A stretch of 64,000 nucleotides of DNA, taken from Candidatus Omnitrophota bacterium (GTDB lineage: Bacteria; Omnitrophota; Gorgyraeia; Zapsychrales; Fredricksoniimonadaceae). The stretch's first letter is position 1; the number at the start of each line of letters is the position of its first letter. Shown one piece after another: positions 936-64,000 of the stretch. The notes beneath the pieces were generated by a model, which saw only the letters and a list, made by a program, of their open reading frames with translations, was not told where the DNA came from and did not search any database. Location: contig JADFXH010000001.1 of assembly GCA_015233675.1 (NCBI GenBank), positions 12,563-76,562 on the forward strand. The letters are read 5' to 3'. The position numbers were made by a program, and so were the translations under genes.

Positions 936-1160
936 GTTCTGTTAAAATTTGCCATTAGCCAACCATGCCAATGGCTAAGGTTATGGTATTATTTCCGAAA
1001 CGGGATATTTTTGCCGTCCGCTTCGGTTTACAACTAATTTTTCCTAAAGTTTCTCTTCATTTGGAAAAAATTTGTTGTAAATCCTCGCGGACTTTTGGCA
1101 AAAAATCCCAGAATGTTTCGAAAATAATACCATAACCTTAGCCATCGCATTCCTTGACAT
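936..1160. repeat. Palindromic intergenic element, copy A (scaffold plus family-1 long hairpin 971-1145)
   Basis: About 96 % identical to 5596-5820. The 31-nt outer arms atggctaaggttatggtattatttccgaaac / gtttcgaaaataataccataaccttagccat pair 30/31. Conserved core shared with three more loci. Confidence 0.9.
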
Positions 1161-5595: not shown

Positions 5596-5820
5596 GTTCT
5601 GTCAAAATTTGCCATTAGCCAACCCTGCCTATGGCTAAGGTTATGGTATTATTTCCGAAACGGGATATTTTTGCCGTCCGCTTCGGTTTACAACTAATTT
5701 TTCCTAAAGTTTCTCTTCATTTGGAAAAAATTTGTTGTAAATCCTCGCGGACTTTTGGCAAAAAATCCCTGAATGTTTCGGAAATAACACCATACCTTAG
5801 CCATCGCATTCCTTGACACT
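5596..5820. repeat. Palindromic intergenic element, copy B (scaffold plus family-1 long hairpin 5631-5804)
   Basis: About 96 % identical to 936-1160 (roughly 8 differences). Begins gttctgtcaaaattt and ends ccttgacact. Confidence 0.9.
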
Positions 5821-8235: not shown

Positions 8236-8436
8236 GTTCTGTCAAAATCCGCTTCCAAATGACGCGGGGCCTGTCCTTAGCCTCAACATTAAGGAGCTCC
8301 TCAGGCGGGAGCAACCTTAACAGCAGTTCCGACGGTGATTTTTCCTAAACCGCCCACTTGAGCAGGTGCCGTGCGCTCCTTAACATTGAGGCTAAAGACA
8401 CCCGCTAATCCATGTTTTCATATAACTTTTGACACT
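8236..8436. repeat. Palindromic intergenic element, copy C (same scaffold termini, different hairpin cargo)
   Basis: Begins gttctgtcaaaat and ends cttttgacact. Internal arms ccttagcctcaacattaaggagc (8275-8297) and gctccttaacattgaggctaaag (8375-8397). Confidence 0.8.
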
Positions 8437-14283: not shown

Positions 14284-14306
14284 CTTTCTTTGATTAATCT
14301 AAAGCT

Positions 14307-14350
14307 AAAACTCCCCTAACCCCTCTTTACAAAAGAAGGGGGGAATAAAA
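14307..14350 (-). repeat. Intercistronic CCCCTC stem-loop, copy 1
   Basis: aaaactcccctaacccctctttacaaaagaaggggggaataaaa; one of five alignable copies. Confidence 0.7.
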
Positions 14351-14358
14351 TTTCAATG

Positions 14359-15093
14359 TCATTTATTAAAATGAGCTCTAGCTTCCTCGAGGGATTCAAT
14401 ACTTCCGATATCATACCATTTTCCGGAAAATTGAAAACCATAAACAGTTTTCTTATTCGAAAGCCATTGGATATAACTGCCCGCCGCATCTACCGCTTTA
14501 GATTGGCTTAAATATTCTTCCAAGAAACCAATCGTCTGTTTTGGAAAATAATACACACACATGGCGATTATGCTAGACACAGGATTCTTCGGTTTTTCCT
14601 CAAAGCTTGTAACTTTTTGAGCATTGTCCAATCCTAACACTCCAAATTTAGTCGCAGCACTTATATCCTTAATGTCAAAAACACCAATGGTCACAGCAGG
14701 CGTTTTACTTATCGCAAAATCCATATAAACAGACATATTTTGATCAAAAAGATTGTCCCCTCCAATGACAAGCCAATCCTGAGCAGAGGCTTCCTTTTTC
14801 CAAACAAAACGGATATCCCCGACGGAACCTAAACGTTCTTCCGGCGTATTAGTGCCGTCATTAACAACGCGGACTGGCAAGCCGTGACGGCTCGCCGCCC
14901 ATTGCTGAAATTGAGGTGTGAACTTATTATTACTGACCACAACGATCTCGCTTAAAGGTTTAATATCCTGAAGCTTATCAACCACATAATCGATCAAAGG
15001 CCTTTCACCCACCGGAATTAAAGGCTTAGGGGTATCTTTGATGACAGAGGCTAAACGTGTCCCATAACCTGCCGCTAAAATTAAAGCTTTCAT
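14359..15093 (-). CDS. Sugar-phosphate nucleotidyltransferase (NTP_transferase family)
   Basis: 244 aa. N-terminal MKALILAAGYGTRL signature of glucose-1-P thymidylyl/uridylyltransferase-like enzymes. Confidence 0.75.
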   Translation of the reverse strand: MKALILAAGYGTRLASVIKDTPKPLIPVGERPLIDYVVDKLQDIKPLSEIVVVSNNKFTPQFQQWAASRHGLPVRVVNDGTNTPEERLGSVGDIRFVWKKEASAQDWLVIGGDNLFDQNMSVYMDFAISKTPAVTIGVFDIKDISAATKFGVLGLDNAQKVTSFEEKPKNPVSSIIAMCVYYFPKQTIGFLEEYLSQSKAVDAAGSYIQWLSNKKTVYGFQFSGKWYDIGSIESLEEARAHFNK

Positions 15094-15140
15094 AAACTCC
15101 CCCTTACCCCTCCTTATAAAAAAGAGGGGGAATAAAAAAT
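15094..15140 (-). repeat. Intercistronic CCCCTC stem-loop + SD, copy 2
   Basis: Minus strand reads ccccctcttttttataaggaggggtaaGGGGGAGtttATG. Confidence 0.7.
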
Positions 15141-19940: not shown

Positions 19941-19982
19941 TAACTCCCCCTGCCCCTCTTTTTAAAAAAGAAGGAAGTTTTT
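19941..19982 (-). repeat. Intercistronic CCCCTC stem-loop + SD, copy 3
   Basis: Minus strand reads uccuucuuuuuuaaaaagaggggcaGGGGGAGuuaagauAUG (frr). Confidence 0.7.
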
Positions 19983-20725
19983 TAACGGACAATAGTACCT
20001 ATTTCTTCGCCGTATATAGCCCTTTTGATGTTCCCTTTTTGCAAAAGATCAAACACAATGATAGGCAGGCTATTGTCCATGCACATGCTGATGGCGGTTG
20101 CATCCATCACTTTCAGATTTTTCTTTAAAACGTCTATAAATTTTAAGCTCTTGAATTTCTTAGCATCTTTATTCTTAAGAGGATCTGCCGAATAAACACC
20201 ATCGACTTTGGTTGCTTTCATGATCACGTCACATCCGATCTCAGTCGCACGTAAAGTCGCGGCTGTGTCGGTCGTAAAATAAGGATTGCCTGTCCCCGCC
20301 ACAAAAATAACCACGCGGCGTTTCTCAAGATGACGTATGGCACGACGCAAAATATACGGTTCAGCAACAGCATGCATTTGAATGGCCGTCATGACCCTTG
20401 TCTGCACACCAACCTGCTCCAGCGCGTTTTGTAAAGCCAAACCGTTCATGACAGTGGCAAGCATGCCCATATAATCAGCTACTGAACGGTCCAAACCAAA
20501 GCGTTTAGATTCGATCAAGCCGCGAAAAATATTGCCGCCACCGACAACGATCGCCATTTCAACGCCAGCCTCATGAACTTCTTTAACTTGGCCGGCTAAC
20601 GAGGCGCACATTTCCACATCAATGCCATGCTGCAGGCGACCCAACAAAGCTTCCCCGCTTAATTTCAGCAATACTCTTTTGTATACAGGAGCTTTATTCA
20701 AAAAAATCCCCTCTTCCTTACTCAC
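19982..20725 (-). CDS. pyrH: UMP kinase
   Basis: 247 aa with [12 protein letters not shown] and [10 protein letters not shown]. Confidence 0.92.
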
Positions 20726-21245: not shown

Positions 21246-21272
21246 GTTAAAATCTCCTTAATAATTTAGTTT

Positions 21273-21312
21273 CAACTCCCCCTGCCCCTCTTTATAAAAA
21301 AGAGGGGAGAAC
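21273..21312 (-). repeat. Intercistronic CCCCTC stem-loop, copy 4
   Basis: Perfect 9-bp stem cccctcttt/aaagagggg. A second small hairpin atccct...agggat lies at 21315-21345. Confidence 0.7.
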
Positions 21313-21353
21313 ATATCCCTATCTTTAACATAAAGAGGGATTCGTGGAGTTTA

Positions 21354-25172: not shown

Positions 25173-26323
25173 TCGTCGCGGGTGAGGCTTCAGGCGATAT
25201 GCGTGCCGCGGGCCTCGCCCGTGCTTTAAAAAATCTTGACCCCGCCCTGCGCCTGAGCGGTATCGGCGGCGAGCATATGCGTCAAGCAGGAGTTGAATGC
25301 TTTACAGACATCACTGAGCTTGCGGTGATCGGCATCACCGAGGTTATTAAAAATTTTAGCCGCATCAAAAAAGTATTTGATCAAACTTTAAAACAAATCG
25401 ATTCCAGTCATCCTGATTGTGTCATCCTGGTTGATTATCCCGGATTTAATCTGCGCCTGGCCCGGGAAATAAAAAAACGCGGGCTAAAGATCATTTACTA
25501 TATCTCGCCCCAAGTCTGGGCATGGAGGGAAAAAAGAATATTGAAGATCAAGAAATTAGTTGACCGCATGATCGTTTTATTCCCTTTCGAAAAAGACATT
25601 TATAGCAAATACGGGATGAAGGTTGATTACGTCGGACATCCTTTAGTGGATGAGATCATCGTGGGTTGCAGCCGCGCAGATGTATTAAAAACAATCGGGC
25701 TTCTTTCAAACAAAACCACCATCGGCATTATGCCCGGCTCACGCGCTAAAGAAGTTGAACGCCACCTGCCCTGCATGCTGGAGGCGGCCCAAAAACTCTT
25801 TAAACAAAACCACGAGCGCCAGTTCATATTGCTCAGGGCCCCCACCATCCCTATGAAAATTATTGAACCAATTTTAAACGAGAACCTATATCCCAAATGT
25901 CATTCCCGCGAATGCGGGAACCTTAAACACATCCCAATTAAAATTTACGATGGACCTGCCTATGATGGGATTAATGCGATGGATGCTGTCATCGTAGCAT
26001 CCGGTACCGCTACCTTAGAAACCGCCCTGCTGGAAAAACCCATGGTCATCATCTATAAAACTTCATGGCTTACCTACGCAATAGCAAAGGCTGTCATCAA
26101 AATCCCTTATATCGGTTTAGTCAATATCGTAGCCGGGAAGAAAATAGCAGAAGAATTAATCCAAAATGAAGCCACCGCTGCCAACATTGCCAATGCCGTT
26201 GAAAGAGCACTCAAGAGGCCTCAAATCGTCGATGAGCTTTCCGCAGTTAAAACATCTTTAGGCAAACCCGGTGCCAGTCTTCGCGCGGCGCGGGTTGTTT
26301 TAGAAGAAATTTCTATCTCATGA
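25145..26323 (+). CDS. lpxB: Lipid-A-disaccharide synthase
   Basis: IVAGEASGD, YISPQVWAWR and ASGTATLE motifs. The more likely start is ATG at 25169, forming an ATGA overlap with the upstream stop. Confidence 0.9.
   Translation: MGTPTKLIMIVAGEASGDMRAAGLARALKNLDPALRLSGIGGEHMRQAGVECFTDITELAVIGITEVIKNFSRIKKVFDQTLKQIDSSHPDCVILVDYPGFNLRLAREIKKRGLKIIYYISPQVWAWREKRILKIKKLVDRMIVLFPFEKDIYSKYGMKVDYVGHPLVDEIIVGCSRADVLKTIGLLSNKTTIGIMPGSRAKEVERHLPCMLEAAQKLFKQNHERQFILLRAPTIPMKIIEPILNENLYPKCHSRECGNLKHIPIKIYDGPAYDGINAMDAVIVASGTATLETALLEKPMVIIYKTSWLTYAIAKAVIKIPYIGLVNIVAGKKIAEELIQNEATAANIANAVERALKRPQIVDELSAVKTSLGKPGASLRAARVVLEEISIS
25899..25921. repeat. REP-like hairpin gtcattcccgc-gaat-gcgggaac inside the lpxB reading frame
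   Basis: Same family as 31260-31284, 53218-53242 and 61447-61470. Translated in frame as CHSRECGN. Confidence 0.7.
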
Positions 26324-27123: not shown

Positions 27124-30100
27124 TTAAACTCCGGCCAAAGTCCCGCCCTTCACAGGCGTCTGGAGCCCCATTAAAGGCCAAACGCTCGTTATAGGTGTTA
27201 TTCTAAAAATCACCGGCGAAAGGCTTTCAATGCCTTCACGCCTAATTCGCGCAACCATGACAGGATCGATATCCATTTCAACACCCTTGCCATCTTTACT
27301 GACCTTCCATTGCATGCCGCCGGAAGTATTTAAATCAATACCTCCTCTAAGATCAGGATTAACAACACGGCCCCTCGAAGCCCTATCAACAGCCATCGCA
27401 GCGTCATTTTTGATTGCACTCTTTGAAAAAAGAGCAAGCAACGCATTCGCCGACCTCTGACAGGGCGATGGGAAAGGAGCCTCAATGCTGGTTTCTTCAA
27501 TATAGCCCCATGCTTGAAGATAATCTGCCCAAGTCTCTATCTTGCTTATTGTCTCCTTATTATCTCTCTTAACCTCGCGTAATATTTCTGGATCGGCTCC
27601 TTTAAGTTTTTTGAGTAATGCAACAAAAGAATCATCAGCTTTCCTTGCCGTGCCTATATCAGGTATTGTGCCCACTGAGAAGTCCCGCATCTGCGCTGTA
27701 TTCGGAATTCCCTTCATTAACTTATTAACCTCTTGAACAATAAGCCCCGTCATGGCAGCGTCAGAAAAAGTAAAATGGAGCGTTTCACCCTCAATGAAGA
27801 CTTTGACTTTTCCGGTCTGCAAGGCTGCAACCTTTTGATGATATCCCTTTTGCAGTTCACTTACATAAACTTCAGGATTCCTAAGAAAAGGATCTATCAC
27901 AAGGCCGAAATTCCCTTCAGACTCAAAAGGAGTTGCGGCATCTTCACGGAAAGCGCTTAATTCATTATCGGGATTGACCCAAAACAAAATGCGTTTGGCG
28001 AGGCTGATTTGATCAATGTTATGCATATCCTCTCTATCAGGCAACTTCACCCATTGCGCTAATCTTTGCAACAATTTCATTTGTTGAACTACAACGGTGG
28101 TATTCAACCCTTCTTTGCCCTTTGCCTCAAGCAAGAATACCCGGTATCCGCGATGAGTATACGTTGCTCCATTTGTATTTATTTTTTTTTGATACTCCGG
28201 GTCATTCGTTACTTCGCGAACGTTTTGGTCATCTATTTCAAAAGAAAAATCCTTCGCCGTCATCGCCGGATTGGGTTTCGCATATGCAGGGATCATTCTT
28301 TCAAATTCCGCAAGGTCCAGCCTGACCACCTTAGTACTTTGGTCGAAGCCTACCCCTAAGACACTCCCATTGAGAGATACAGAATTAACACCTACCAGTC
28401 TGCCAGAGTTATAAATATTTGGACCAGGAACACCTTCCGTAATCAGCCTTGTATGGTCCTCATTGCGATCAAGCATAACATTCCATAAACGACTCCACCT
28501 GTGCAGGGGGTTCTTTGGATAAGCGAAAAAGAACTCGAGCTGGCGCAGCCCTCCTTCCCCTATATCATCGGCAACAAACAACTGTCCCTTAACATAGACC
28601 CTCGCATTGCCTCCCATAACCGGAAGAGAAACGCCAACATTTCTGCCTTTTGCGTTAAATAGTTGAAAATAATTTATACCATTTTTCACTCTAATACCTA
28701 TCTTCATGTTGGGGGCAATAGGGACATCCGGGTCGCCAGGTTTAACCGTAAGCGTAGCCGCGTCTGTCATATTTGACCGATCATCTCCTAAAGCAGCATC
28801 TGATTGACTATATTCTAAAAGCTTTAAAGCGATTTCCTGTGGGGGCAAATCCTGATTTTTATTCACTAGTTCAAGAAGATCATAATAGGAAGCTCCTATA
28901 TTAATCCCTGCGGCCTGTAAATTTTCAATAAAAGCCTGATACACTTTCTGGTAACCGTCTTCAAACTGATCAAAAATATTATGCCCATTACTTTTGAGTT
29001 TATTAATCTCAACCCCCCGTTGCTCCGCCAAGGCCACCATGTCCCAAAATTCAGAATACCATGCAGACGGGCCTTTAAGTAGCGTATTGAACACCCTATC
29101 AAAATCAAATTTATCATCCGGCAGCTTTCTTTTTCCTTTGATCTCTGGAGTCATTTCATTGTGAAGTTTTTGTTTTAACTCTTGCATACCATCAAGATAG
29201 CGGTTTATAATTTTCTTCAACCCCTCTGCCGTCATTGCCGCATTGCCGATGGCTCGACCGAGAGCCGTACCCGGCAAAAGCTTGGCCCGCGCAAAAGTTG
29301 CTTGTATTTTTTGCTCATCAGTGGCGTTTGAATCACGGGCACTGACCTTTAATGTGATCTCCATTAACGGATCTATGGCAGAACCCCTCGGTCTCCATCC
29401 AGAATCTATAAATCTGAAGATCTCATCCAGGCGTGGTTGAAAAATAAACCAGCAGTGGTCTACAACAAGACGCGTAAAATTCTTTTCATGGATTTTGTTC
29501 AAACTCTCTTCTGTCTCCGCCATCTTGATCATTAAATAATTTAAAATTGTCAAATGCACAAATTGCCTCGCGGCAGTTTCTGTCCGATGAAATTGTTTGG
29601 CAATCGCGGGGCTGACATTTATAATGACCTCCCGGATATTCTGCTCAATAACGCTTTGTTCTTGGCCTGTCAATTGACGATTATTCTCAATATCCGTCAT
29701 CCTGAATAAAACACCCATTGACTCCTCAAGAGGCTTAAATATTCTCGGAAACGCCGTCTCAAAATCTACGGAAGATGCCATCGCCTCATCAAAACCAGCA
29801 GCCGGTGAAGGCATTGCCGCGTTAGCGTTATTTGTAACTACACCTGCATTAATGATCACCATGGCCCTATTGGGCAAAGAATCGGACAATGCGGCTACAT
29901 CCGTTGTCATCGCAGGATTAGCCGCAGGAGTGCCTTCGATTAATAACCCGCCAGAGAAATATTTGTGAGGAATCGTTGCGCCCGCCGCGTCCACGTCTTC
30001 CTTAATATAGTTGAACACGCCCTTTTTATAGGCTTTCAGGTATTGTTCATAAATTTGCCGTTTTACTGTCGGATCATTTAAATCAATACCTTTGACCTTG

Positions 30101-31044
30101 GCTTTATTGGCATACACTTGATTGAGCAAGGCTTCTTTAAGGTTTTTCTTGTACCAGCTGGAAAGTATAATTGAGTTGAAAATCTGGCGCAGATTGGCGA
30201 AGTTTTTGCCGGTATTGACTTCTTTTTCGAGTTCGGGAAGGATGATTTCTTTGACGATTTGACTGGCTAAGGAGTTGCTTGGCAAGCGGCTTGTTCCCTG
30301 GGGTGCTTTCAGTTCCAGAGCTTCATTGGTTGGCAGCCTGCTTGGGGACACGGCCCCTTCGGGGACATGTCCCCTGGTTGGCGTCCCTATTTGGCTTTGG
30401 TGCTTTTGCAAGGCCAGATAATCTTCTTCCAGCATTACCTTTAAATGTTGGTCTACCACAAAGGCGGTTTGGTTGTGTTCAAAGACTTCTGCCCTGTCGG
30501 CCATGATCCATACCTTATTAAAGGTGTTGACCGGGACTTGGGTTGTTCCATATGTCTGCCGGGCCTTGGCATAGACTTTATCCCAGAAGGTCTTGCCTAA
30601 CTGTTTCTCCGGATAAATAAGAGAAGCTGTGATTTGTTTTAAAATATAGTCCTGTTCCAAAAGGTCACGCCCCATGTCGGTCTGACCCAATGCTTCAGGG
30701 ATAATTTTGTTATTTTCATAAGGAGATAGGTTGACCCAAACATCTTTGTCAGGGATAGCTAAACTGGCTAAAAAATACTTGATAAGCTTTTCGCCTTCTT
30801 TTTTCAGAGGCTCACCGGACATCTTGTCTTGGCCCACATCCACTATAAAATCAAACAAGAAAGGATTATCTTTGTGAACAGTCAGGCCTTTTATGATCAC
30901 AGGCTCATAGGCAGGACTTAAATTGACCATGGTTCCGGGGGCAGGCAGGCCTAAAACAGAATCGGCATGGGCTTTGGGCAGAGGGCCTAAGGCGGTCAAA
31001 AGAAAACAAAAAATAATTATCAAGTTCAAAATTCTTTTGAACAT
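27124..31044 (-). CDS. Large secreted protein: signal peptide + ~390-aa N-module (paralog of 8544..11540) + ~850 aa of unknown modules + GGIDL C-terminal module
   Basis: 1306 aa. Long identical runs shared with 8544..11540 (LIKYFLASL, GQTDMGRDLL, LKQITASLIYPE, PVNTFNKVWI, PELEKEVN.GKNFA.LRQ, KYFSGG). No TM helix after the signal peptide. Confidence 0.8.
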   Translation of the reverse strand: MFKRILNLIIIFCFLLTALGPLPKAHADSVLGLPAPGTMVNLSPAYEPVIIKGLTVHKDNPFLFDFIVDVGQDKMSGEPLKKEGEKLIKYFLASLAIPDKDVWVNLSPYENNKIIPEALGQTDMGRDLLEQDYILKQITASLIYPEKQLGKTFWDKVYAKARQTYGTTQVPVNTFNKVWIMADRAEVFEHNQTAFVVDQHLKVMLEEDYLALQKHQSQIGTPTRGHVPEGAVSPSRLPTNEALELKAPQGTSRLPSNSLASQIVKEIILPELEKEVNTGKNFANLRQIFNSIILSSWYKKNLKEALLNQVYANKAKVKGIDLNDPTVKRQIYEQYLKAYKKGVFNYIKEDVDAAGATIPHKYFSGGLLIEGTPAANPAMTTDVAALSDSLPNRAMVIINAGVVTNNANAAMPSPAAGFDEAMASSVDFETAFPRIFKPLEESMGVLFRMTDIENNRQLTGQEQSVIEQNIREVIINVSPAIAKQFHRTETAARQFVHLTILNYLMIKMAETEESLNKIHEKNFTRLVVDHCWFIFQPRLDEIFRFIDSGWRPRGSAIDPLMEITLKVSARDSNATDEQKIQATFARAKLLPGTALGRAIGNAAMTAEGLKKIINRYLDGMQELKQKLHNEMTPEIKGKRKLPDDKFDFDRVFNTLLKGPSAWYSEFWDMVALAEQRGVEINKLKSNGHNIFDQFEDGYQKVYQAFIENLQAAGINIGASYYDLLELVNKNQDLPPQEIALKLLEYSQSDAALGDDRSNMTDAATLTVKPGDPDVPIAPNMKIGIRVKNGINYFQLFNAKGRNVGVSLPVMGGNARVYVKGQLFVADDIGEGGLRQLEFFFAYPKNPLHRWSRLWNVMLDRNEDHTRLITEGVPGPNIYNSGRLVGVNSVSLNGSVLGVGFDQSTKVVRLDLAEFERMIPAYAKPNPAMTAKDFSFEIDDQNVREVTNDPEYQKKINTNGATYTHRGYRVFLLEAKGKEGLNTTVVVQQMKLLQRLAQWVKLPDREDMHNIDQISLAKRILFWVNPDNELSAFREDAATPFESEGNFGLVIDPFLRNPEVYVSELQKGYHQKVAALQTGKVKVFIEGETLHFTFSDAAMTGLIVQEVNKLMKGIPNTAQMRDFSVGTIPDIGTARKADDSFVALLKKLKGADPEILREVKRDNKETISKIETWADYLQAWGYIEETSIEAPFPSPCQRSANALLALFSKSAIKNDAAMAVDRASRGRVVNPDLRGGIDLNTSGGMQWKVSKDGKGVEMDIDPVMVARIRREGIESLSPVIFRITPITSVWPLMGLQTPVKGGTLAGV

Positions 31045-31243: not shown

Positions 31244-31284
31244 GTCATTTTGTAAAAGCGGATTCCCGCTTGCGCGGGAATGAC
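31244..31284. repeat. REP-like hairpin (ggattcccgc-ttgc-gcgggaatgac)
   Basis: 8-bp GC stem; fits the pattern ATTCCC-N8-GGGAAT. Confidence 0.7.
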
Positions 31285-31299
31285 AAAATCTATTATGCC

Positions 31300-31319
31300 A
31301 TCCCCGCGAAAGCGGGGAT
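31300..31319. repeat. REP-like hairpin (atccccgc-gaaa-gcggggat)
   Basis: Perfect 8-bp stem with a GAAA loop. Confidence 0.7.
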
Positions 31320-44513: not shown

Positions 44514-45410
44514 TCACCTAGCCAGACGATGACGCCTTTGCGCAAAAAAGCTTACCAAGGCTTTGGTATAAGGCACATCCGTTGAAATATCAATATGATC
44601 AATGCCAATGGTATCAAATAAACGGCTGCGATCTTTTATCATGCCCATCGCATTCTTATGATAATCCCTGCGCAAACGTTCATTAGAAGTATCAACAATC
44701 ATCTTGGCGCCTGATTCTGCGTCCACCAGTTCAACCAAGGCACAATCCGGTAAATTAATTTCACGGGGATCCGTCAAAGTAATAGCAATTAAATCATGGT
44801 GCTGATTGGCAATACGTATGGATTTGCGTATAGACACGTAATCGGCATTGGGGGCTAAAAAATCAGAAATAATAAAAACCGTTGATCTGCGGCGAAGCAC
44901 TTTTGTAAGAAACTCCAGCACCTTGGGTAAATTAGTGGCTTTGCCCTTAGGCTTAAAATATAAGATCTCACGGATAACCCTTAGCACATGGATTTTGCCT
45001 TTTTTAGGCGGGATAAAAAGCTCCGGCTCATCGGTAAACATCAAAAGGCCAACCTTGTCATTATTACGGATAGCGGCAAATGCCAGGACCGCGGCAATTT
45101 CCGCGGCTAATTTATTTTTCATTTGATTAGTTGAGGCAAATTGCATTGATGCGGAGGCGTCGACTAAAATCATGACCGTAAGCTCGCGCTCTTCAACGTA
45201 TTTTTTAATATGGGGGAAACCGGTACGGGCAGTGACGTTCCAGTCAATGGCCCGAACATCATCTCCGGGCTGATACTCACGCACCTCATCGAATTCCATC
45301 CCCCTGCCCTTAAAAATGCTGTGATAAGCGCCGGCAAAAACATCCGTCACCAAGCGGTTGGTAGTGATATCAATGCGCAAGATTTTCTCAAGAATGTCTT
45401 TAGGGATCAT
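44514..45410 (-). CDS. DUF58 protein (MoxR-associated, VWA-like)
   Basis: 298 aa with REYQPGDDVRAIDWNVTAR. Confidence 0.82.
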   Translation of the reverse strand: MIPKDILEKILRIDITTNRLVTDVFAGAYHSIFKGRGMEFDEVREYQPGDDVRAIDWNVTARTGFPHIKKYVEERELTVMILVDASASMQFASTNQMKNKLAAEIAAVLAFAAIRNNDKVGLLMFTDEPELFIPPKKGKIHVLRVIREILYFKPKGKATNLPKVLEFLTKVLRRRSTVFIISDFLAPNADYVSIRKSIRIANQHHDLIAITLTDPREINLPDCALVELVDAESGAKMIVDTSNERLRRDYHKNAMGMIKDRSRLFDTIGIDHIDISTDVPYTKALVSFFAQRRHRLAR

Positions 45411-45471
45411 ACTATATTCCCTTTGCAGATGGCAGGCATTGTAAGTGATAAATTCTTGGAAACACCATTAG

Positions 45472-45646
45472 GAAGGATGGAGAGCTATTATGTATTCGGC
45501 ACATTCAGGAATTTTTTGCCAAAAGTCTGCAAGGTTTTACGACAATTTTGTTCCAAATGAAGAGAATCTTTAGAACAAAATTGTCGTAAACCGTAGCAGA
45601 CGGCAAAAATATTCCGTGCCGAATACATAATAGCTCTCCATCCTTC
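45472..45646. repeat. Family-1 long hairpin, copy D (inverted relative to copies A/B)
   Basis: Outer arms gaaggatggagagctattatgtattcggcac / gtgccgaatacataatagctctccatccttc pair 31/31. Lies between moxR and the DUF58 gene. Confidence 0.9.
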
Positions 45647-45687
45647 ATGCATGCCAGTGATCACAAAGACTAATTTTATCCATGGCT

Positions 45688-46683
45688 TTACGGCACTTCG
45701 ACTTCGTCTAATATGCGCTTGACAAGATCTTCCGGGGCCTTGCCCTCGGCTTCAGCTTCATAGCTGGGTAAAACACGGTGGCGCAGGACATCCATGCCGA
45801 TGCTTTTAACATCCTGCGGCGTAACGAATCCCCTCCCCTGTATAAACGCGTGCGCCCTGGCGGCTAACGCTAAGTTGATCGTGGCCCGCGGACTCGCCCC
45901 ATAAAGGATCAATCCTTTAAGGTCATTAAGTTTATACCGCTCAGGATTCCTGGTCGCTTCCACAATCCGCACAATGTAATCCTCTATCTTTTCATCCATA
46001 TAAATTTCATCCACCACCGAACGCAGGCGGATAATATCCTGCGGAGTTGCCACCGCCTGCACGGAAAATGACTGACGGGTTGTGGCCATGCGCTTGAGGA
46101 TTTTTAATTCTTCATCCATGGTCGGATAAGTAATCCTCACCTTGAGCATGAAGCGATCTACCTGAGCTTCGGGTAATGGATAAGTCCCTTCCTGCTCGAT
46201 CGGATTTTGGGTGGCTAAAACCAAAAATGGATCGTCCAATTTTAAAGTCTCTTCACCAATCGTCACCTGCCGCTCCTGCATGGCTTCAAGCAACGCGCTT
46301 TGCACCTTGGCAGGCGCCCGGTTAATTTCATCAGCAAGAATAATATTGGCAAAGATCGGGCCTTTTTTAACATTAAAAGTCCCGTTACGCTGGTCATAAA
46401 TAAGCGTACCCGTCAAATCCGCAGGGAGCATATCTGGAGTAAATTGCAGACGCTGAAATTTAGCCTGTATCGTCTGGGCCAAAGTCTTGACCGCAGTGGT
46501 CTTGGCCAAACCCGGCACTCCCTCGACCAAAATATGACCATTGGCTAATATGCCTATCAAAAGCCGGTCGATTAATACATTTTGACCGACAATCACCTTA
46601 GAGGTCTCAAAACGGATCGCGTCAATGACCCCCGATTCCTTTTTGACTTTCTCATTAATAACACCGACACCTGTGCTAGTCAT
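45688..46683 (-). CDS. moxR: MoxR-family AAA+ ATPase
   Basis: 331 aa with Walker A GVPGLAKT and Walker B ILADEINR. Confidence 0.9.
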   Translation of the reverse strand: MTSTGVGVINEKVKKESGVIDAIRFETSKVIVGQNVLIDRLLIGILANGHILVEGVPGLAKTTAVKTLAQTIQAKFQRLQFTPDMLPADLTGTLIYDQRNGTFNVKKGPIFANIILADEINRAPAKVQSALLEAMQERQVTIGEETLKLDDPFLVLATQNPIEQEGTYPLPEAQVDRFMLKVRITYPTMDEELKILKRMATTRQSFSVQAVATPQDIIRLRSVVDEIYMDEKIEDYIVRIVEATRNPERYKLNDLKGLILYGASPRATINLALAARAHAFIQGRGFVTPQDVKSIGMDVLRHRVLPSYEAEAEGKAPEDLVKRILDEVEVP

Positions 46684-46738: not shown

Positions 46739-47272
46739 TTATAAACCGAGCAAAGAACGATGGCCGTCACGGGCTATCTTCCGTGCCAAAGTTTGCACTT
46801 TGTTCTTTAAACGGTCTTTATGGAGCTTCATTTTAGCCGACACTTTTTTATCAAAAGTCGCAATGATCTGGGCCGCTAAAATACCTGCATTCTTGGCACC
46901 ATTAACCGCAACGGTCGCTACCGGAACACCCTCAGGCATCTGTACAATGGATAACAATGAATCCAGACCTCCTATGGAATTGGATGATTTGACCGGCACA
47001 CCAATGACAGGAAGTGTCGTAACAGCGGCTATAACGCCCGGCAAATGAGCTGCCCCGCCGGCACCGGCTATAATGACTTTTAAACCGCGCGAAGCGGCCC
47101 TTGATGCGTAATCAAAGGTCATTTTGGGTGCCCGGTGCGCTGAAATCACCGTGACCTCATAAGGAATACCGAATTCATCCAATATATCCGCAGCAGCATT
47201 CATAAGGTTTAAGTCAGACTGGCTGCCCATGATAATACCGACTAATGGATTCTTCATTTTAAGGCTCTCCAT
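46739..47272 (-). CDS. purE: N5-carboxyaminoimidazole ribonucleotide mutase
   Basis: 177 aa with GSQSDL, SAHRAP and AGGAAHLPG. Confidence 0.9.
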
Positions 47273-47315
47273 AAACTCACCCTTCCCCCTCTTTATAATA
47301 AAGAGGAAGTATAAC
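47273..47315 (-). repeat. Intercistronic CCCCTC stem-loop + SD, copy 5
   Basis: Minus strand reads cuuccucuuuauuauaaagagggggaaGGGUGAGuuuAUG (purE). Confidence 0.7.
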
Positions 47316-47318
47316 TTT

Positions 47319-51879: not shown

Positions 51880-51979
51880 GTTCTGTCAAAATTCTTACAG
51901 GCTAATACTGATATAAAGATTTTAGCCAAAACAAAATATCGATATCAGCCGTCCACGCATTTCATAAAACTTTTGACCC
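51880..51979. repeat. Palindromic intergenic element, copy E (scaffold with a short hairpin cargo)
   Basis: gttctgtcaaaattcttacaggc[taatactgatat...atatcgatatcag]ccgtccacgcatttcataaaacttttgaccc. Confidence 0.8.
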
Positions 51980-53217: not shown

Positions 53218-53242
53218 GGATCCCCGCTTTCGCGGGAATGAC
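53218..53242. repeat. REP-like hairpin (ggatccccgc-tttc-gcgggaatgac)
   Basis: GC stem. Located between the Smr gene stop and the next candidate promoter. Confidence 0.7.
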
Positions 53243-54978: not shown

Positions 54979-55686
54979 TTAACCTCCGATCTTTTTACCG
55001 TCTTTTAAATAAATAGCCTTATCGTAACGGGACTCTTCCTGGTCATAATAATGGGTCGCTACAATCACCGTTTTCCCTTGAGCTTTAATTTTATGTAAAA
55101 CCTCACTGACCGTCTGGCGGGTACTCTCATCTACCGCGTTAAGCGGTTCATCCAGCAAAAGCAAATCCGCGTTTTGAGCCAAGGCTCGGGCGATCAACAC
55201 CCTCTGCTGCTGACCGCCGGAAAGTTTACTAATCTGACGATCAGCCAAATCCAAGACGTTCATTTCTTTAAGAGAATGACTGGCAATTTCAATATCTTTC
55301 TTCTGAGGCCGATTAAACCAGCCTAAATAAACATACCGCCCCATAACAACCAAATCCAGAACACTGATTGGAAAATGCCAGTCGATCTCGCTACGCTGGG
55401 GCAAATAAACTACCCTGTGATGACAAGCTCCTAAAGGATGCCCAAAAACACGAATATTACCTGTACGGACAGGTAAAAGGCCGCAAATGGCTTTAAACAA
55501 AGTTGACTTACCCGCACCATTGGGGCCAACCAAGGCCATGGCTGAACCAGCCGAAACGCTAATATCAATATCCCTGAGAACAAATTTTTCTTCTGAAGGA
55601 TAGGAAACCCCCAGCCCTTGAATTTCCAAAGCAGGCGCTTTAGGGTCAGGAGAACTATGCCTGTGTTGACAATAAGGGAATCTCAT
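54979..55686 (-). CDS. Metal ABC transporter ATP-binding protein
   Basis: Walker A GPNGAGKST, signature LSGGQQQR, Walker B LLLLDEP. Confidence 0.88.
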   Translation of the reverse strand: MRFPYCQHRHSSPDPKAPALEIQGLGVSYPSEEKFVLRDIDISVSAGSAMALVGPNGAGKSTLFKAICGLLPVRTGNIRVFGHPLGACHHRVVYLPQRSEIDWHFPISVLDLVVMGRYVYLGWFNRPQKKDIEIASHSLKEMNVLDLADRQISKLSGGQQQRVLIARALAQNADLLLLDEPLNAVDESTRQTVSEVLHKIKAQGKTVIVATHYYDQEESRYDKAIYLKDGKKIGG

Positions 55687-56594
55687 TTTAAATATTTCCG
55701 AAAAATTTCCACATTGTATTTTATCATACTTAAATAGGTCCCGCCTTCACTGCCGGATGGCCCCAAAGCGTCGGTGTATAACAACGGCCCTATTTCAATA
55801 CCTGCTTCATGGGAAAGCGACCGGGCTAATTTAGGGTTGGCCATGTTTTCTGAAAAGATGACGCAAACACCATTGGCTCTAATAATATTTAACAAATCCG
55901 CTGTTTGCTTTGCGGATGGGTCAGCGGCTTCTGTTGTGGCAGATGGAATTACAGCGCCGATGATTTTAAAGCCATAACGTCCGGCAAAATACCCTAAATC
56001 GTCATGGTTGGTAACTAATTTACGTTTACCTACAGGAATTGAGGCAACTTGGGCCTTGACCCAAGCATCCAGCACTTGGAGTTGTTGGATGTAATTACGG
56101 ACGTTAGAATCATATATGTCCTTATTAAGAGGATCAATGCTCACCAGCGCATCACGAATATTTTTAGTATAAAGGACAACATTGGAAACGTCTTGCCATG
56201 CATGCGGATCAGTTTCATTAGGATTGTCTTCAAAAATTCTTGGGGCAACGCCCTGAGAAACAACGATGCGTTTAGCTTTTGAGCCGCTGGCCATATACAA
56301 TTTATCCAACCAATGTTCCAGGTGTAAGCCGTTTTCAAAAATAATGTCTGCTTTAGCTATACTTACGGAATCTGCCGGGATTGGTTCATATTCGTGAGCA
56401 TCCCCATTGGGGCCAACCAAAACAACTAAATCAACCTTGTCCCCTGCCACATTTTTAAGGACATCACCGATAATACTAATGGTCGCTATCGCTTTAATCT
56501 TTTCGGCGCGGGCAGTGCTTAGCCCAAGTCCAATAATTAAAAAAGCTAATAACATCACCTTCCCGATATTTAAAAACTTTGTCACGTAACTCAT
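55683..56594 (-). CDS. Metal ABC transporter substrate-binding protein (ZnuA/TroA family)
   Basis: ORF 55683..56663. The likely start is MSYVTKFL at 56594. Signal peptide and DPHAW motif. Confidence 0.85.
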   Translation of the reverse strand: MSYVTKFLNIGKVMLLAFLIIGLGLSTARAEKIKAIATISIIGDVLKNVAGDKVDLVVLVGPNGDAHEYEPIPADSVSIAKADIIFENGLHLEHWLDKLYMASGSKAKRIVVSQGVAPRIFEDNPNETDPHAWQDVSNVVLYTKNIRDALVSIDPLNKDIYDSNVRNYIQQLQVLDAWVKAQVASIPVGKRKLVTNHDDLGYFAGRYGFKIIGAVIPSATTEAADPSAKQTADLLNIIRANGVCVIFSENMANPKLARSLSHEAGIEIGPLLYTDALGPSGSEGGTYLSMIKYNVEIFRKYLK

Positions 56595-56618
56595 AAACTT
56601 CTTCCTTCTGCAAAAAAC

Positions 56619-57014
56619 GGTTATGTCAAAAGTTATATGAAAAATGCAATGGACGGCTGACACCGATATGTTCCTCCTGCTAAAATTTGACGTTCACGCT
56701 GGTACCGTTGTTGCCCAAAAAATTGGTCACGCGAAAGCTCCTGCCGAATGCAATGTTGTCAAATTTCTATACGCAGGAGAAACATATCGGTATCAGCCTG
56801 CGCAAAATTTACGTGTTATGCATGAGAAGAGATATTGTTTGCGAAACATTCAGGGATTTTTCGCCAAAAGTTGGCTAGGATTTACAACGAAAATGTTCCA
56901 AATGAAGAGAAACTTTAGAACATTTTTGCTGTAAACCGACGCCAACGGCGAAAATATCCCGTTGAGCAAATAATATCTCTTCTCATGCATAACCTGCAAG
57001 AATTTTGACAGAAC
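56619..57014. repeat. Compound palindromic element, copy F (inverted scaffold carrying two hairpins: 56657-56796 and the family-1 copy at 56815-56993)
   Basis: Left end ggttatgtcaaaagttatatgaaaaatgcaatggacgg; right end cctgcaagaattttgacagaac. Fills the whole spacer between the TPR gene and the substrate-binding-protein gene. Confidence 0.85.
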
Positions 57015-57036: not shown

Positions 57037-57720
57037 TTAAAACAATACTCTGCTATGTTTATTCTTGTAAAAATCGTATTGCTTTTGGATCTCTTTGGCT
57101 TGAGCGCTGTTCCCTGTTTTTTTGTAGCACTCAAGTAACATGCCCAGTAAAGTTTGCATACTATTTAAACTTCGGAATCCCAGAGTGCCATGACGGTATT
57201 TCAGAATATCAGCTTCCAATAAAGCTGACGCACGGCTCCCGGCACTTCTGACACGTTCAAAATACCCAATGGCCCTGACAAAATCACCCTTCGAATAATA
57301 GGCTTGGCCTAATTCAAAAGAGGCCACCTGCTTATCATCGGGATCTAGTAAAAGGACTTTCTTAAATACCGGGATTGCCATATCTTCCCGGGACAAATCC
57401 ATGTAGGCATACCCTAAAGATGCCCATGCCTGCTTGTTGTCCTTATCAATGACAATTATTTTTTTACATAAACGGATCACATCGCTGTAAGAAGAGTTTG
57501 CGGAATAGGCAACAACACGAACAAACATCTGCTGAACAACAAATGGCCGTAAAAGAATTAACATCGCCCCCACGATCAACACCGTCAAAAGCCATCGACC
57601 CAAAAATCTTAACGGATGATAGCCATAACTATGCCCGCCGCCATGATCATGACCATGATCGCAGGTACATTCTTTGGAATTTGCCTGAGCATATGCGTGT
57701 GTATGTTCTGAGTGGCTCAT
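57037..57720 (-). CDS. Membrane-anchored TPR protein with a His/Cys-rich N-terminus
   Basis: 227 aa: MSHSEHTHAYAQANSKECTCDHGHDHGGGHSYGYH, then a TM helix and TPR repeats. Confidence 0.65.
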   Translation of the reverse strand: MSHSEHTHAYAQANSKECTCDHGHDHGGGHSYGYHPLRFLGRWLLTVLIVGAMLILLRPFVVQQMFVRVVAYSANSSYSDVIRLCKKIIVIDKDNKQAWASLGYAYMDLSREDMAIPVFKKVLLLDPDDKQVASFELGQAYYSKGDFVRAIGYFERVRSAGSRASALLEADILKYRHGTLGFRSLNSMQTLLGMLLECYKKTGNSAQAKEIQKQYDFYKNKHSRVLF

Positions 57721-61446: not shown

Positions 61447-61470
61447 GGATTCCCGCTTGCGCGGGAATCC
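61447..61470. repeat. REP-like hairpin (ggattcccgc-ttgc-gcgggaatcc)
   Basis: Perfect 10-bp stem. Located between the lipoprotein gene stop and the next promoter. Confidence 0.75.
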
Positions 61471-61493
61471 ACATTTACAAAAAACTAAGACTA

Positions 61494-62459: not shown

Positions 62460-62516
62460 GTTCTGTCAAAATTCTTGCAGGCCGTCCATTGCATTTTTTA
62501 GATAATTTTTGACACT
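62460..62516. repeat. Palindromic scaffold without hairpin cargo (copy G, apparently unoccupied form)
   Basis: gttctgtcaaaattcttgcaggccgtccattgcattttttagataatttttgacact. Confidence 0.75.
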
Positions 62517-62620: not shown

Positions 62621-63214
62621 CTATTCTAATTTGCTTAAAATAAGCTTTTGACCATTTTGATCAAGGGTAAAATGGAATTTGCTCAGGAATGATAACCCCA
62701 ATAAACCATCCTTGAGCCCCTTACTGTCTTCAAGCAAGACAGCAGCACTGACATCCTGGGCCTTACTCTCCCCAAGCCTTACATTATTTAATGAAACCGC
62801 GGCTGCTTTATATTTGCCATTAAGGATTTCTACATACCCCACTTTAGATTGGCTGGTATCAAGGTCTAATTTCTGGACAAATGCGGATGTCAGCATAACC
62901 ACCGGAGACCCTGTGTCCACGATCAAAGAAGCGTGGACTTTGTTATTGATAAGCACATCCGCAAGAAAATGGCCTTGGCCGTCAGGAACCAAGGGTATAA
63001 CGACCCCTTGCATGTCTTTACGCTTTTGCTCTCTCTCCATCCCAAGATCATCACTCAATTGCTCCCTGGCAGCAAGGATCTTTGAAGAAATGCCCGTTGC
63101 GTTCGCTGCAGCCAATGACTGACGATCCGCCTTGATAATATCGCTTTCATCCGCACGGGCAGCAGGACACACAAGGATAAAAAAAATCAGAAATCCCATG
63201 ACTTTAATGTTCAT
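62621..63214 (-). CDS. Retropepsin-like (clan AA) aspartic protease, secreted
   Basis: 197 aa with a signal peptide and the catalytic LIVDTGSPVVML motif. Confidence 0.8.
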   Translation of the reverse strand: MNIKVMGFLIFFILVCPAARADESDIIKADRQSLAAANATGISSKILAAREQLSDDLGMEREQKRKDMQGVVIPLVPDGQGHFLADVLINNKVHASLIVDTGSPVVMLTSAFVQKLDLDTSQSKVGYVEILNGKYKAAAVSLNNVRLGESKAQDVSAAVLLEDSKGLKDGLLGLSFLSKFHFTLDQNGQKLILSKLE

Positions 63215-63298
63215 GCTTTTATTCTACCAAAATATTAAGAATATTGCGGTTTAAATGGTTCTTTCGTATTTACTGGACTACTTTAATTTATGCAACTT

Positions 63299-63467
63299 CA
63301 ATGGACAGCAATTGTATATTCGGAACGGGATATTTTCGCCGTCTGCTTCGGTTTACAACAAAAATGTTCTAAAGATTCCCTTCATTTGGAACATTTTTGT
63401 CGTAAAACCTCGCAGACATTTGGCGAAAAATCCCTGAATGTTCCGAATATACAATTGCTGTCCATCG
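63299..63467. repeat. Family-1 long hairpin, copy H (with degenerate scaffold flanks, about 63263-63475)
   Basis: Outer arms caatggacagcaattgtatattcggaac / gttccgaatatacaattgctgtccatcg pair 27/28. The core aligns with the other copies. Confidence 0.9.
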
Positions 63468-63531
63468 TTGACGCAAATATATATAATTTTTATTATCAAT
63501 TTTATTTATGTGTCCAATGAATAAGAAAGGT

Positions 63532-64000
63532 TTAAATATTAGGAGCCAATCTATCTCTCAGGTTTAAAAAATAACGCTCAATAGTATTGGAACTTAAAAC
63601 CCCTATCCATATGCATGTGATAAAACAACATACTATGATCAATTCTATCGGGATTGTACCGATCCATATTTTCCAAAATTCCAAAACTAAATAATGCCAC
63701 ACATAGATCCCATACGAATGCCTCCCTAGCCATTGGAAACTTTTAAACCGGGCCAGAAGTGAAACCCCGTGATACGCGGCAAAAAATAATAGGCCTACAC
63801 AAAGATACCCCAAAGTAAAATAGTACCAACTCCCCCAATAATAACTCCAGTCGATAGCCAAAAATAAATAAAAAAAGAGCGCCATTCCCGCAAGCCAAAA
63901 AACCGAACCCCATAATTTGCTTTTCTTCCATTGAGACCAATAAGGTTCCAATAAAGCCAATAAGCTGCCAAAACAAATGGGGCCGAGATTATAACTGATC
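63532..64000 (-). CDS. Acyltransferase-3 (OafA-like) family membrane protein, C-terminal part (5' end beyond window)
   Basis: The frame stays open upstream of the track start to position 64000 (…ISYNLGPICFGSL-LALLEPYW…). GRHSYGIYVWH motif. Confidence 0.7.
   Translation of the reverse strand, partial: ISYNLGPICFGSLLALLEPYWSQWKKSKLWGSVFWLAGMALFFYLFLAIDWSYYWGSWYYFTLGYLCVGLLFFAAYHGVSLLARFKSFQWLGRHSYGIYVWHYLVLEFWKIWIGTIPIELIIVCCFITCIWIGVLSSNTIERYFLNLRDRLAPNI

Follow-up and report, generated by a model that had tools for sequence, protein, structure and literature searches.

A long-hairpin repeat family of Candidatus Omnitrophota, apparently mobile and with arms that stay complementary

We have found that five long hairpins located in a 64,000-nt stretch of DNA from a Candidatus Omnitrophota bacterium (the whole of which is referred to here as "the window") are copies of a non-coding mobile repeat family that has apparently not been described before and that occurs across the Omnitrophota. 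The best explanation for these repeats is that the family is specific to Candidatus Omnitrophota and that it functions in the manner of REPINs, ERIC or Correia elements, while being a member of none of them. For its mode of maintenance, we lean, with modest confidence, towards a REPIN/ERIC-like non-autonomous mobile element that would be handled as a folded single strand and the arms of which would regain their symmetry at the DNA level.

The window is an ordinary stretch of chromosome with nearly all of its genes on the minus strand, among them aroK/aroE, leuA/ilvC, metK/ahcY, PTS genes, rpsB-tsf-pyrH-frr, two-component systems, the MoxR-DUF58-BatA-D operon and the Znu transporter. The nearest relatives of its MoxR protein carry the labels Candidatus Omnitrophica/Omnitrophota; a look-up of the exact MoxR protein returned no record. 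Two window ORFs of 1306 and 1319 aa were considered as rpoC/rpoB and rejected, one of them being a PAS/histidine-kinase hybrid and the other being without a family; a plasmid search that was tied to the rpoC/rpoB reading gave no match.

A hidden Markov model (HMM) built from 85 family members finds five copies of the hairpin element in the window and no degenerate extras, and the apical 23-mer CTAAAGNTTCNCTTCATTTGGAA has five zero-mismatch matches in the window, with 0.00 expected by chance; the five copies that the initial annotation had located are confirmed at the same coordinates by sequence comparison and by the HMM. As the core is asymmetric, an orientation can be assigned to every copy: the canonical strand (GGRATATTTTNGCCGT...CTAAAG...) is the plus strand at 971, 5631 and 63299 and the minus strand at 45472 and 56815, the two orientations being discriminated by the HMM at 170 vs 57 bits. 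Copy 1 (971..1145, plus strand; arm subfamily ATGGCTAAGGTTATGG; MFE -87 kcal/mol) is located upstream of aroK, while copy 2 (5631..5804, plus strand), which has the same arms, is located in the spacer between leuA (4055-5578) and ilvC (5896-6888). These two copies are 97% identical with arms and flanks included (936-1159 vs 5596-5818), the common flanks being 35 nt on the left (936..970, plus strand; GTTCTGTYAAAATTTGCCATTAGCCAACC..., containing the motif GTTCTGTCAAAATT) and, by pairwise alignment, 14 nt on the right (1146-1159). Copy 3, the focal copy (45472..45646, minus strand), occupies the spacer between DUF58 (44514-45410) and MoxR (45688-46683), and its canonical strand, the minus strand, runs in the sense direction of the operon. 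Copy 4 (56815..56993, minus strand; arm subfamily GAGAAGAGATATT..TTGC) is located between znuA (55683-56663) and a TPR gene (57037-57720), with weaker pairing out to ~56803-57007, and copy 5 (63299..63467, plus strand) between an aspartyl-protease-like ORF (62621-63214) and an acyltransferase-like ORF (63532-63960), with imperfect pairing out to 63286-63480. All five copies are situated between co-directional genes; they are spaced 4.6-40 kb apart, in both orientations, with housekeeping genes around them. The outer arms had been described as unrelated between loci, which fails for copies 1 and 2, with their shared arms, and for the copies at 45472 and 63299, the arms of which are related (85% over 169 nt).

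Each window copy forms one long hairpin of ~175 nt, as the initial annotation had proposed: the RNA minimum free energies range from -85 to -110 kcal/mol, and the fold of the focal copy has a z of about -20 (-19.6 as RNA, -19.9 as DNA), with none of 200 shuffles folding as well. In the focal copy, the outer arm (45472..45502) is 100% complementary to its inverted-repeat match, the partner outer arm (45616..45646; neither arm is assigned a strand), with 31/31 pairs; the copy at 971 has 30/31, both counts agreeing with those reported earlier, and the copy at 56815 has 30/33. Inside the arms of the focal copy, all features being assigned to the minus strand, there is a conserved 5-nt one-sided bulge (45503..45507), with the canonical-strand sequence TGAAT and, over the 85 aligned copies, the consensus T(G/T)A(A/T)T, followed by the mid-stem, the 3' half of which (45508..45530) consists of GGCAAAAAATTCC, a 4-nt bulge (45521-45524) and GCAGAC, while the 5' half (45596..45615) reads GGAATATTTTTGCC GTCTGC on the canonical strand and contains a 1-nt bulged A. 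The variable apical stem, of ~13 bp plus loop (45541..45585), has covarying pairs, with 45541-45553 pairing with 45573-45585, and encloses the apical loop (45554-45572), which carries the CTAAAGATTCTCTTCATTTGG module. The one-sided bulges are three in number, i.e. TGAAT, (A/T)TTT and a single A, and the fold also has an internal loop; the 4-nt bulge that had been noted as kept is present, accompanied by the 5-nt bulge, the 1-nt bulge and this loop.

Across the family, the element is modular, being composed of a conserved bulged mid-stem, an apical stem, a swappable apical module and variable outer arms. The conserved mid-stem reads ACGG(R)ATATTTTNGCCGTCTGCTTCGGTTTAC ... GTAAANCCTCGCAGAC(A/T)TTTGGCNAAAAATYCCTGAATGT; its helices 3 and 4 are 98-99% paired, while at N, the lone position of TTTTNGCC/GGCNAAAA that is free to vary, 37 copies have T-A, 25 have C-G and 21 have G-C. 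The apical stem has ~12-13 bp, the positions of which vary freely yet stay paired. The apical module CTAAAGATTCTCTTCATTTGG occurs in ~2/3 of the distinct copies among the matches listed, whereas ~1/3 of the family members listed carry one of at least five alternatives (types B to F), differing modules being sometimes located on one contig (L074); the apical loop that had been called conserved is invariant within the window but not throughout the wider family, about a third of which has another module in its place. The orientation of the loop relative to the bulges is fixed in all type-A copies listed, and the unpaired bases of the bulges and the loop show strong conservation between species. 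The outer arms, of ~30 bp (mostly 25-35) and without sub-hairpins, are grouped in subfamilies that are common to different loci and genomes, with pairing that often runs on, imperfectly, beyond the arms; their outermost few base pairs differ between copies even in one genome and are complementary nonetheless. Conservation is highest in the mid-stem, partly as an effect of ascertainment because the metagenome scan that is described below demanded a partial mid-stem match, and not at the ends, the termini being the least conserved part of the element. Internal-deletion derivatives occur in L012 (at 4498) and in L060.

Outside the window, a scan with the apical loop over one genome per species returned 28 loci, 27 of which are genuine long hairpins from ~10 Omnitrophota MAGs (some of them mislabelled Planctomycetales); the other locus, from Leptolinea, is a chance match and not a member of the family. 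In a scan of metagenome contigs, a mid-stem pattern that does not depend on the loop matched at least 120 stretches, with at least 143 distinct cores, while the viral contigs that were scanned contained zero copies. The comparison with Rfam, which had been proposed in the initial annotation, has been run and left the family unmatched: at the gathering threshold the window has three tRNAs only, with the hairpin being assigned to no family; at a permissive threshold generic miRNA hairpins appear, the best of them being a plant miRNA precursor model (55.9 bits vs a threshold of 110); and six related loci gave nothing. The search of the literature library found no paper with the core sequences and none on Omnitrophota repeats.

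To analyse the covariation of the arms, we aligned 85 distinct copies of type A; for this alignment, RNAalifold predicts 67 pairs, with double-sided changes in 40 of them. The compensatory changes that had been quoted for the window copies are correct, and the claim that complementarity is maintained and does not erode holds over the whole alignment: 95.3% of the cells are paired, compared with 77.9% in column shuffles (0/500 of which reach the observed value) and ~45% when the partner is slid by 1-3 columns, and double-changed cells number 1032, compared with 329 in the shuffles and 135-211 with the slid partner, although these cell counts overstate the number of events, as the copies are phylogenetically related. 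As a control for relatedness, each variable column was compared both with its pairing partner, located 30-170 nt away, and with variable neighbours on the same arm at a distance of at most 2 nt: the normalised mutual information is 0.71 with the partner vs 0.21 with the neighbours, the partner being higher in 27/29 pairs. A coupling to the partner that so exceeds the coupling to the neighbour cannot be produced by the inheritance or exchange of contiguous blocks, and the pairing is therefore maintained position by position. In the outer arms, the positions of which are linked to one another, complementarity is 87% to the arm of the same element vs 58% between different elements.

The comparison of orthologous junctions has revealed both filled and empty sites in four pairs of loci (L076/L081, L107/L051, L079/L008 and L012/L032), all of these comparisons being between species, with flanks that are 67-82% identical; no consistent direct repeat (target-site duplication) was seen at these four pairs at that level of flank identity, and no convincing conserved terminal motif was found across the copies. 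The focal MoxR-DUF58 junction, compared among ~10 relatives with a MoxR that is 86-94% identical, occurs in many states: it is empty in L032 (4 nt) and in L157 (9 nt), the MoxR of which is 89-91% identical to that of the window; it contains an unrelated hairpin with a 25-bp stem in L030 and L031, a small hairpin in L154, a 7-nt microsatellite in L156, other long palindromes, with or without a GIY-YIG gene, in L029, L033 and L155, and a member of the long-hairpin family from a different arm subfamily in L012. An isogenic empty site was sought at this junction among the closest relatives of the window, where the junction proved to be hypervariable instead. The junction in L037 that is orthologous to that of the window copy at 5631 contains a copy with different arms and in reversed orientation, and resident copies that differ in apical module, arms or orientation have been found at the orthologous sites of L052/L054, L100/L103, L067/L072 and L049/L074. 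In the orthologous pair L052/L054 the arms are ~95% identical, as estimated by eye, and the apical modules differ, as is also the case in L100/L103; the body of the L052/L054 element is likewise ~95% identical by eye, vs 72-74% for the flanking coding DNA.

Judging from these between-species junction comparisons, the long-hairpin elements are mobile and MITE-like. The initial annotation had set the decay of a MITE against a maintained fold; the fold is indeed maintained, and since the elements are also mobile and MITE-like, the two are not alternatives. With classical MITEs, the elements have in common that they are short, non-coding, multi-copy and intergenic and that they show presence/absence polymorphism; they differ in lacking conserved terminal inverted repeats, and the ends of the one IS seen nearby do not match. 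That they are ordinary young MITEs with long terminal inverted repeats, the covariation being inherited from palindromic subfamily masters with no mechanism that maintains the pairing, would agree with the clear arm subfamilies across loci and genomes and with the mutual linkage of the outer-arm positions; we regard it as extremely improbable in view of the partner coupling (0.71 vs 0.21), which block inheritance cannot produce, of the termini, which are the least conserved part of the element rather than the most conserved, and of the orthologous copies with flanks 72-90% identical (L100/L103, L013/L116), which are near-perfect hairpins with compensated differences.

The manner in which the arms change has a signature of its own. 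On the canonical strand, with one invariant T·G left out, there are 5308 Watson-Crick pairs, 37 G·T, 117 A·C and 148 other pairs, i.e. wobble is rare, at 0.66% for G·T and 2.1% for A·C, which is wobble-type on the opposite strand; moreover, of the 66 alternative pair types, 39 (568 of 1004 cells) can be reached only through a transversion in each arm, a route that offers no wobble intermediate. Arm indels are compensated within one MAG (TTAAATGG/CCATTTAA in L007 vs TTAAGCAGG/CCTGCTTAA in L008), and the internal loop CTTCGG/CCTCG has become a perfect CTTCGG/CCGAAG in three unrelated copies (L004, L038 and L109). At one orthologous site, the right arm has a mismatched TCAC in L016 and L022 and the exact complement of the left arm, GAAT, in L135; in L016, 12 nt of the left flank are perfectly mirrored at the right, while the orthologue L022 is without the mirror. 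Outside the element, the complementarity of the flanks exceeds expectation by a small but significant amount (p = 8e-6).

Template switching is known to homogenise and to expand the arms of inverted repeats (PMC8794818, PMC8604942, PMC13100816), and the one-step perfection of several nucleotides (L004, L038, L109 and L135) and the outward growth of the arms (the flank mirror of L016) match what is described for template switching at quasipalindromes. That process is mutational, and leaves unexplained the shared core, the retained bulges and the dispersal of the element; the spacer inversion that it predicts is not seen among the type-A copies listed, in which the loop orientation is fixed. The low wobble, the transversion doubles, the compensated indels and the loop closures favour templated correction at the DNA level over classical RNA covariation, and the complementarity of the arms is most likely kept by arm-to-arm copying at the DNA level or by selection on the folded single strand; between the selected fold and the hairpin-templated copying that the initial annotation had offered as alternatives, it is the templated option that is favoured, with selection on the folded strand remaining compatible. 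Arm-to-arm templating by itself would remove the bulges, and selection is required for them to be conserved and for the loop to keep its orientation relative to them; it would act on recognition by a factor that mobilises or processes the element, or else on a host function.

The position of the copies in the genome bears on such a host function. Of 98 distinct copies that could be classified, 90 are located between co-directional genes (these counts are not independent), at median distances of 24 nt past the upstream stop codon and 46 nt ahead of the next start, nearly always within the short stop-to-start spacer, which they typically fill; 58 copies have the canonical strand as the sense strand and 32 as the antisense strand (p = 0.008, with counts that are again not independent). 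This placement and the modest sense excess count in favour of the main rival explanation, a structured RNA selected by the host, which we find rather unlikely: the hairpins would punctuate operons in polycistronic mRNA, the duplex with its bulges and loop would guide cleavage of the RNase III type or stop exonucleases, so that the upstream and the downstream cistrons would differ in stability, the pairing would be kept by selection at the RNA level, and mobility would merely seed new sites. The conservation of the unpaired loop and bulge bases across species, together with that of the element bodies, which outdo the flanking coding DNA at orthologous sites, also fits selection at the level of the host; different hairpin types at one operon junction in different genomes, with some hairpin at the MoxR-DUF58 junction in most relatives, could indicate that a hairpin of some kind is favoured at that site; and the transcripts of Correia and ERIC repeats form hairpins at which RNase III and RNase E cleave the mRNAs (PMC10969869). 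Against a host-selected RNA, one third of the copies are antisense to their operon, so that their RNA would present a different loop and different bulges, and the apical module is interchangeable. G·U is limited to 0.66% on the canonical strand, while the 2.1% of A·C pairs fall, as wobbles, on the strand that is the mRNA in ~36% of the copies, and most double changes are of the transversion type that has no possible wobble intermediate. The focal copy has no promoter or terminator of its own, the scan of this copy having given no signal above chance; Rfam offers no family, just the sub-threshold generic miRNA hairpins; and the focal junction is empty (4-9 nt) in some relatives.

Our search for a mobilising enzyme is focused on the window and on the surroundings of the copies elsewhere. 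Among more than 50 window ORFs scanned there is no transposase, in agreement with the initial annotation, and the window contains no integrase or recombinase gene and no RAYT gene; no RAYT candidate is located between dRS3-like repeats at the loci either, where the enclosed ORFs are ordinary. The clustering of 1808 ORFs from 153 loci returned no recurring partner gene, only housekeeping genes in synteny, and the genes enclosed by paired copies are ordinary as well (hisB, scpA-ruvB and others). An IS5-like element in L032, the only IS seen nearby, was considered as a parent and rejected, as its ends are unrelated to the hairpin. As a separate observation, a family of tandem Zn-ribbon/HNH-like ORFs, which belongs to no Pfam family and is absent from the window, occurs near five copies and in L029; any link to the hairpins is putative.

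Small dRS3-like palindromes (ATTCCC-N8-GGGAAT) adjoin 13% of the copies, the five window copies not being among them, and are located at the 5' side of the canonical strand, on the same strand, in 16 of 17 cases; the comparison of orthologues suggests that the dRS3-like unit was added beside a pre-existing hairpin. A similar arrangement is known from the NIMEs of Neisseria, where small palindromes of this form are found in arrays beside larger intergenic repeats, with dRS3 repeats, which are recombinase targets, flanking RS elements (PMC1797815); in the long-hairpin family, by contrast, the unit is on one side only and in a minority of copies. Another likeness is that to attC sites, in the extrahelical bases on one arm, the variable terminal structure, the free sequence with kept structure and the recognition as a folded single strand, which for the long-hairpin family is proposed. 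The attC sites have conserved R''(RYYYAAC)/R'(GTTRRRY) boxes at the base of the hairpin and are organised in same-orientation cassette arrays beside intI; the bases of the long hairpins are without R''/R' motifs (e.g. GAAGGATGG...CCATCCTTC and ATGGCTAAGG...CCTTAGCCAT), and the copies are dispersed among housekeeping genes, in both orientations, with no cassette arrays.

These likenesses bear on the explanation that the repeat is a DNA-level site of the host, where folded or cruciform DNA would be bound or recombined in an attC-like or dRS3/NIME-like manner by a site-specific recombinase or by a nucleoid or replication protein, with the one-sided extrahelical bases setting the choice of strand. 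The attC-like anatomy, the DNA-symmetric pairing and the polar association with dRS3-like units, the Neisseria counterparts of which are recombined, are consistent with it; the bases without R''/R' motifs, the dispersal in both orientations, the window without an integrase or recombinase gene and the dRS3-like neighbour in so few copies are not, and we judge such a site to be very unlikely.

Among the known repeats, REPINs and the long-hairpin family are alike in being non-coding, multi-copy and extragenic, in forming a long hairpin in ssDNA or mRNA, and in having compensatory changes on both sides of the hairpin; they are also alike in persisting in a lineage alongside an enzyme that is encoded at another locus and acts in trans, and that for the long-hairpin family is putative. 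REPINs are ~70-110 nt long, with two conserved terminal REP sequences and a free centre, and are mobilised by RAYT transposases, the (Y1 HUH) gene of which is usually flanked by REPs. The long-hairpin element, in contrast, has ~175-200 nt, with a conserved bulged mid-stem and loop and its most variable parts at the termini, and its arms contain no REP-like sub-hairpins, so that the terminal REP doublet is lacking. In REPIN hairpins, compensatory changes on both sides are common (PMC3116915). ERIC/YPAL and Correia (CREE/nemis) elements are likewise imperfect palindromes, of 100-170 bp, that are found in transcribed intergenic regions in either orientation and with internal indel variants. Correia elements are associated with a TA duplication, whereas the ends of the long-hairpin element are variable, with no TA frame or duplication seen. 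The termini of Correia elements are, moreover, conserved inverted repeats of 26-51 bp (PMC1797815, PMC10969869). ERIC, with its 127-bp consensus, differs in phylum and in length, the distinction from ERIC and Correia being drawn from their descriptions and not from an alignment; the swappable apical modules and the near-perfect pairing over ~80 bp are unusual in comparison with both.

Under the REPIN/ERIC-like reading that we favour, the element would be handled folded as a single strand, probably ssDNA, by a putative trans-acting enzyme that would read the bulged mid-stem and the loop, not the termini, while in the other stems geometry alone would matter. The symmetry of the arms would be restored by short-patch templating from arm to arm, through hairpin mismatch correction or template switching, which may also now and then erase internal loops and extend the palindrome into the flanks; a contiguous central segment would be exchanged between copies, which would explain the swaps of apical modules under unchanged arms (L052/L054). 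The co-transcribed duplex of ~80 bp would be an RNase III-type substrate as a side effect, and not the raison d'etre of the element. Against this reading, no mobilising enzyme is located in the window, beside the copies or between paired copies, and neither a target-site duplication nor a conserved terminus has been defined. A more specific version, drawn by analogy and in our view distinctly doubtful, is that a putative enzyme that reads the folded strand, likened to an integrase reading attC or to TnpA reading the ends of IS200, would recognise the bulged mid-stem and the loop and act ~30 bp off, at the base of the hairpin, with the arms being re-copied at each mobilisation, for example by a self-primed fill-in able to capture flank bases; the dRS3-like repeats, with their fixed polarity at the 5' foot, would belong to the same system. 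Such re-copying would explain termini that are variable yet complementary, as well as palindromes that creep outwards.

The persistence and the stem covariation of REP, ERIC and similar palindromic repeats have been debated for decades, the options being selection on RNA, selection for transposability and conversion at the DNA level. The long-hairpin family is informative for this debate, being long, near-perfectly paired and abundant across an uncultured phylum, with a core, an apical module and arms that evolve at different rates and with orthologous sites that can be compared between genomes. Here, the evidence points to a symmetrisation of the arms at the DNA level, because the coupling to the pairing partner far exceeds that to the neighbours, wobbles are few, the double changes include transversions, and loops are closed in one step; this question is testable with existing metagenomes and metatranscriptomes. 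In practical terms, the repeats break assemblies, put duplexes of ~80 bp into operon transcripts and could serve as lineage markers of the Omnitrophota, while the putative enzyme acting at the base of the hairpin, if true, would represent a new mobilisation logic for the non-autonomous elements of bacteria.

The junction between the MoxR and DUF58 genes (window positions 45410-45688), where the focal hairpin is located, is hypervariable between close relatives, as seen in the related loci L029-L033, L154-L157 and L012, which derive from other Omnitrophota genomes or metagenome contigs. The junction may be empty (4 or 9 nt), or it may hold a hairpin, either small or with a 25-bp stem, a microsatellite of (GTGGTAA)n units (L156 2497-2667), two further long palindromes, GIY-YIG gene insertions or a member of the long-hairpin family, i.e. 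the ~175-nt mobile repeat.

One insertion adjoining MoxR (L029 8948-9838) belongs to a family of ORFs in which a ~140-aa module occurs once or twice; every module combines a CxxC...CxxC zinc ribbon with an HNH-like motif (CYYT..L...SPWY.VFDH..P.D..K.VITS.L.N.MKSDL). Other members are located at L013 5208-6194, L056 2705-3535, L076 2344-3195, L116 9411-10247 and L137 771-1199, and 12 nt separate the start of the L137 member from a hairpin copy; identity across loci is 35-50%, no Pfam family corresponds to these ORFs, and none occurs in the window.

A ~170-nt conserved, 6S-like structured region, without a match in Rfam and preceded by the promoter-like motif CATTGTAAGNGATAAATTTGTTC, is found in L015 (~2140-2360), L009 (~450-650), L069 (two copies), L120 and L144; in L009 and L015, hairpin copies are located directly upstream of this region. 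The same promoter-like motif is also carried by the window at 45437-45454, directed into the focal hairpin.

The 14-nt motif GTTCTGTCAAAATT occurs seven times in the window, against 1.2 occurrences expected (936-949, 5596-5609, 8236-8249, 51880-51893, 56620-56633, 57001-57014 on the minus strand, and 62460-62473), and adjoins hairpin copies 1, 2 and 4. In most cases the motif is situated 15-75 nt upstream of a minus-strand gene start, where the gene strand reads AATTTTGACAGAAC; it is missing from all related loci and is therefore possibly a leader or promoter-like motif specific to this genome. A ~45-nt hairpin, CCCCTCTTT-loop-AAAGAGGGG, is present in five window copies (14306-14350, 15093-15137, 19941-19985, 21271-21315 and 47272-47316), each directly past a gene end; these are probably intrinsic-terminator-like repeats, and hairpins of this kind are also seen at empty sites of relatives (L091, L016). 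Repeated coding segments of 59-87 nt, 75-81% identical, link window positions 10420-10881 and 29996-30382, which lie in the 998-aa kinase-domain ORF (8544-11540) and a 1306-aa ORF without a family (27124-31044), respectively. The two large proteins appear to have a paralogous region in common.

A second, small repeat family is also present in the window, GTCATTCCCGCGNANGCGGGAAT(CCAG), which fits the Neisseria dRS3 pattern, ATTCCC-N8-GGGAAT (PMC1797815). Its copies lie at 25899-25921 (+), 31262-31284 (-), 31297-31319 (+), 53220-53242 (-) and 61449-61471 (-), the second and third forming an inverted doublet, and 22 related loci also carry it (e.g. L135 5234-5254, L147 192-212). Among pairs of the two repeats within 150 nt, the small repeat is located 5' of the canonical strand of the long hairpin and on the same strand in 16 of 17 cases, at a spacing of 4-63 nt; none of the five long hairpins of the window has such a neighbour. 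L135, when compared with the orthologous loci L016, L022 and L138, suggests that the small repeats joined a hairpin that was already present.

Hairpin copies frequently occur as inverted pairs (L026 970-1368, L110 220-606, L139, L125, L095, L132/L143), some adjacent, 41-90 nt apart, and others enclosing one ordinary gene, such as hisB, or two, scpA-ruvB. Across the alignment of 85 distinct copies (A2), mismatches on the canonical strand are asymmetric, A·C (117) outnumbering G·T (37); the complementary strand (...CCAAATGAAGAGAATCTTTAG...) is therefore the one that carries wobble-type mismatches, an asymmetry that could come from strand-specific folding or from mutational bias.
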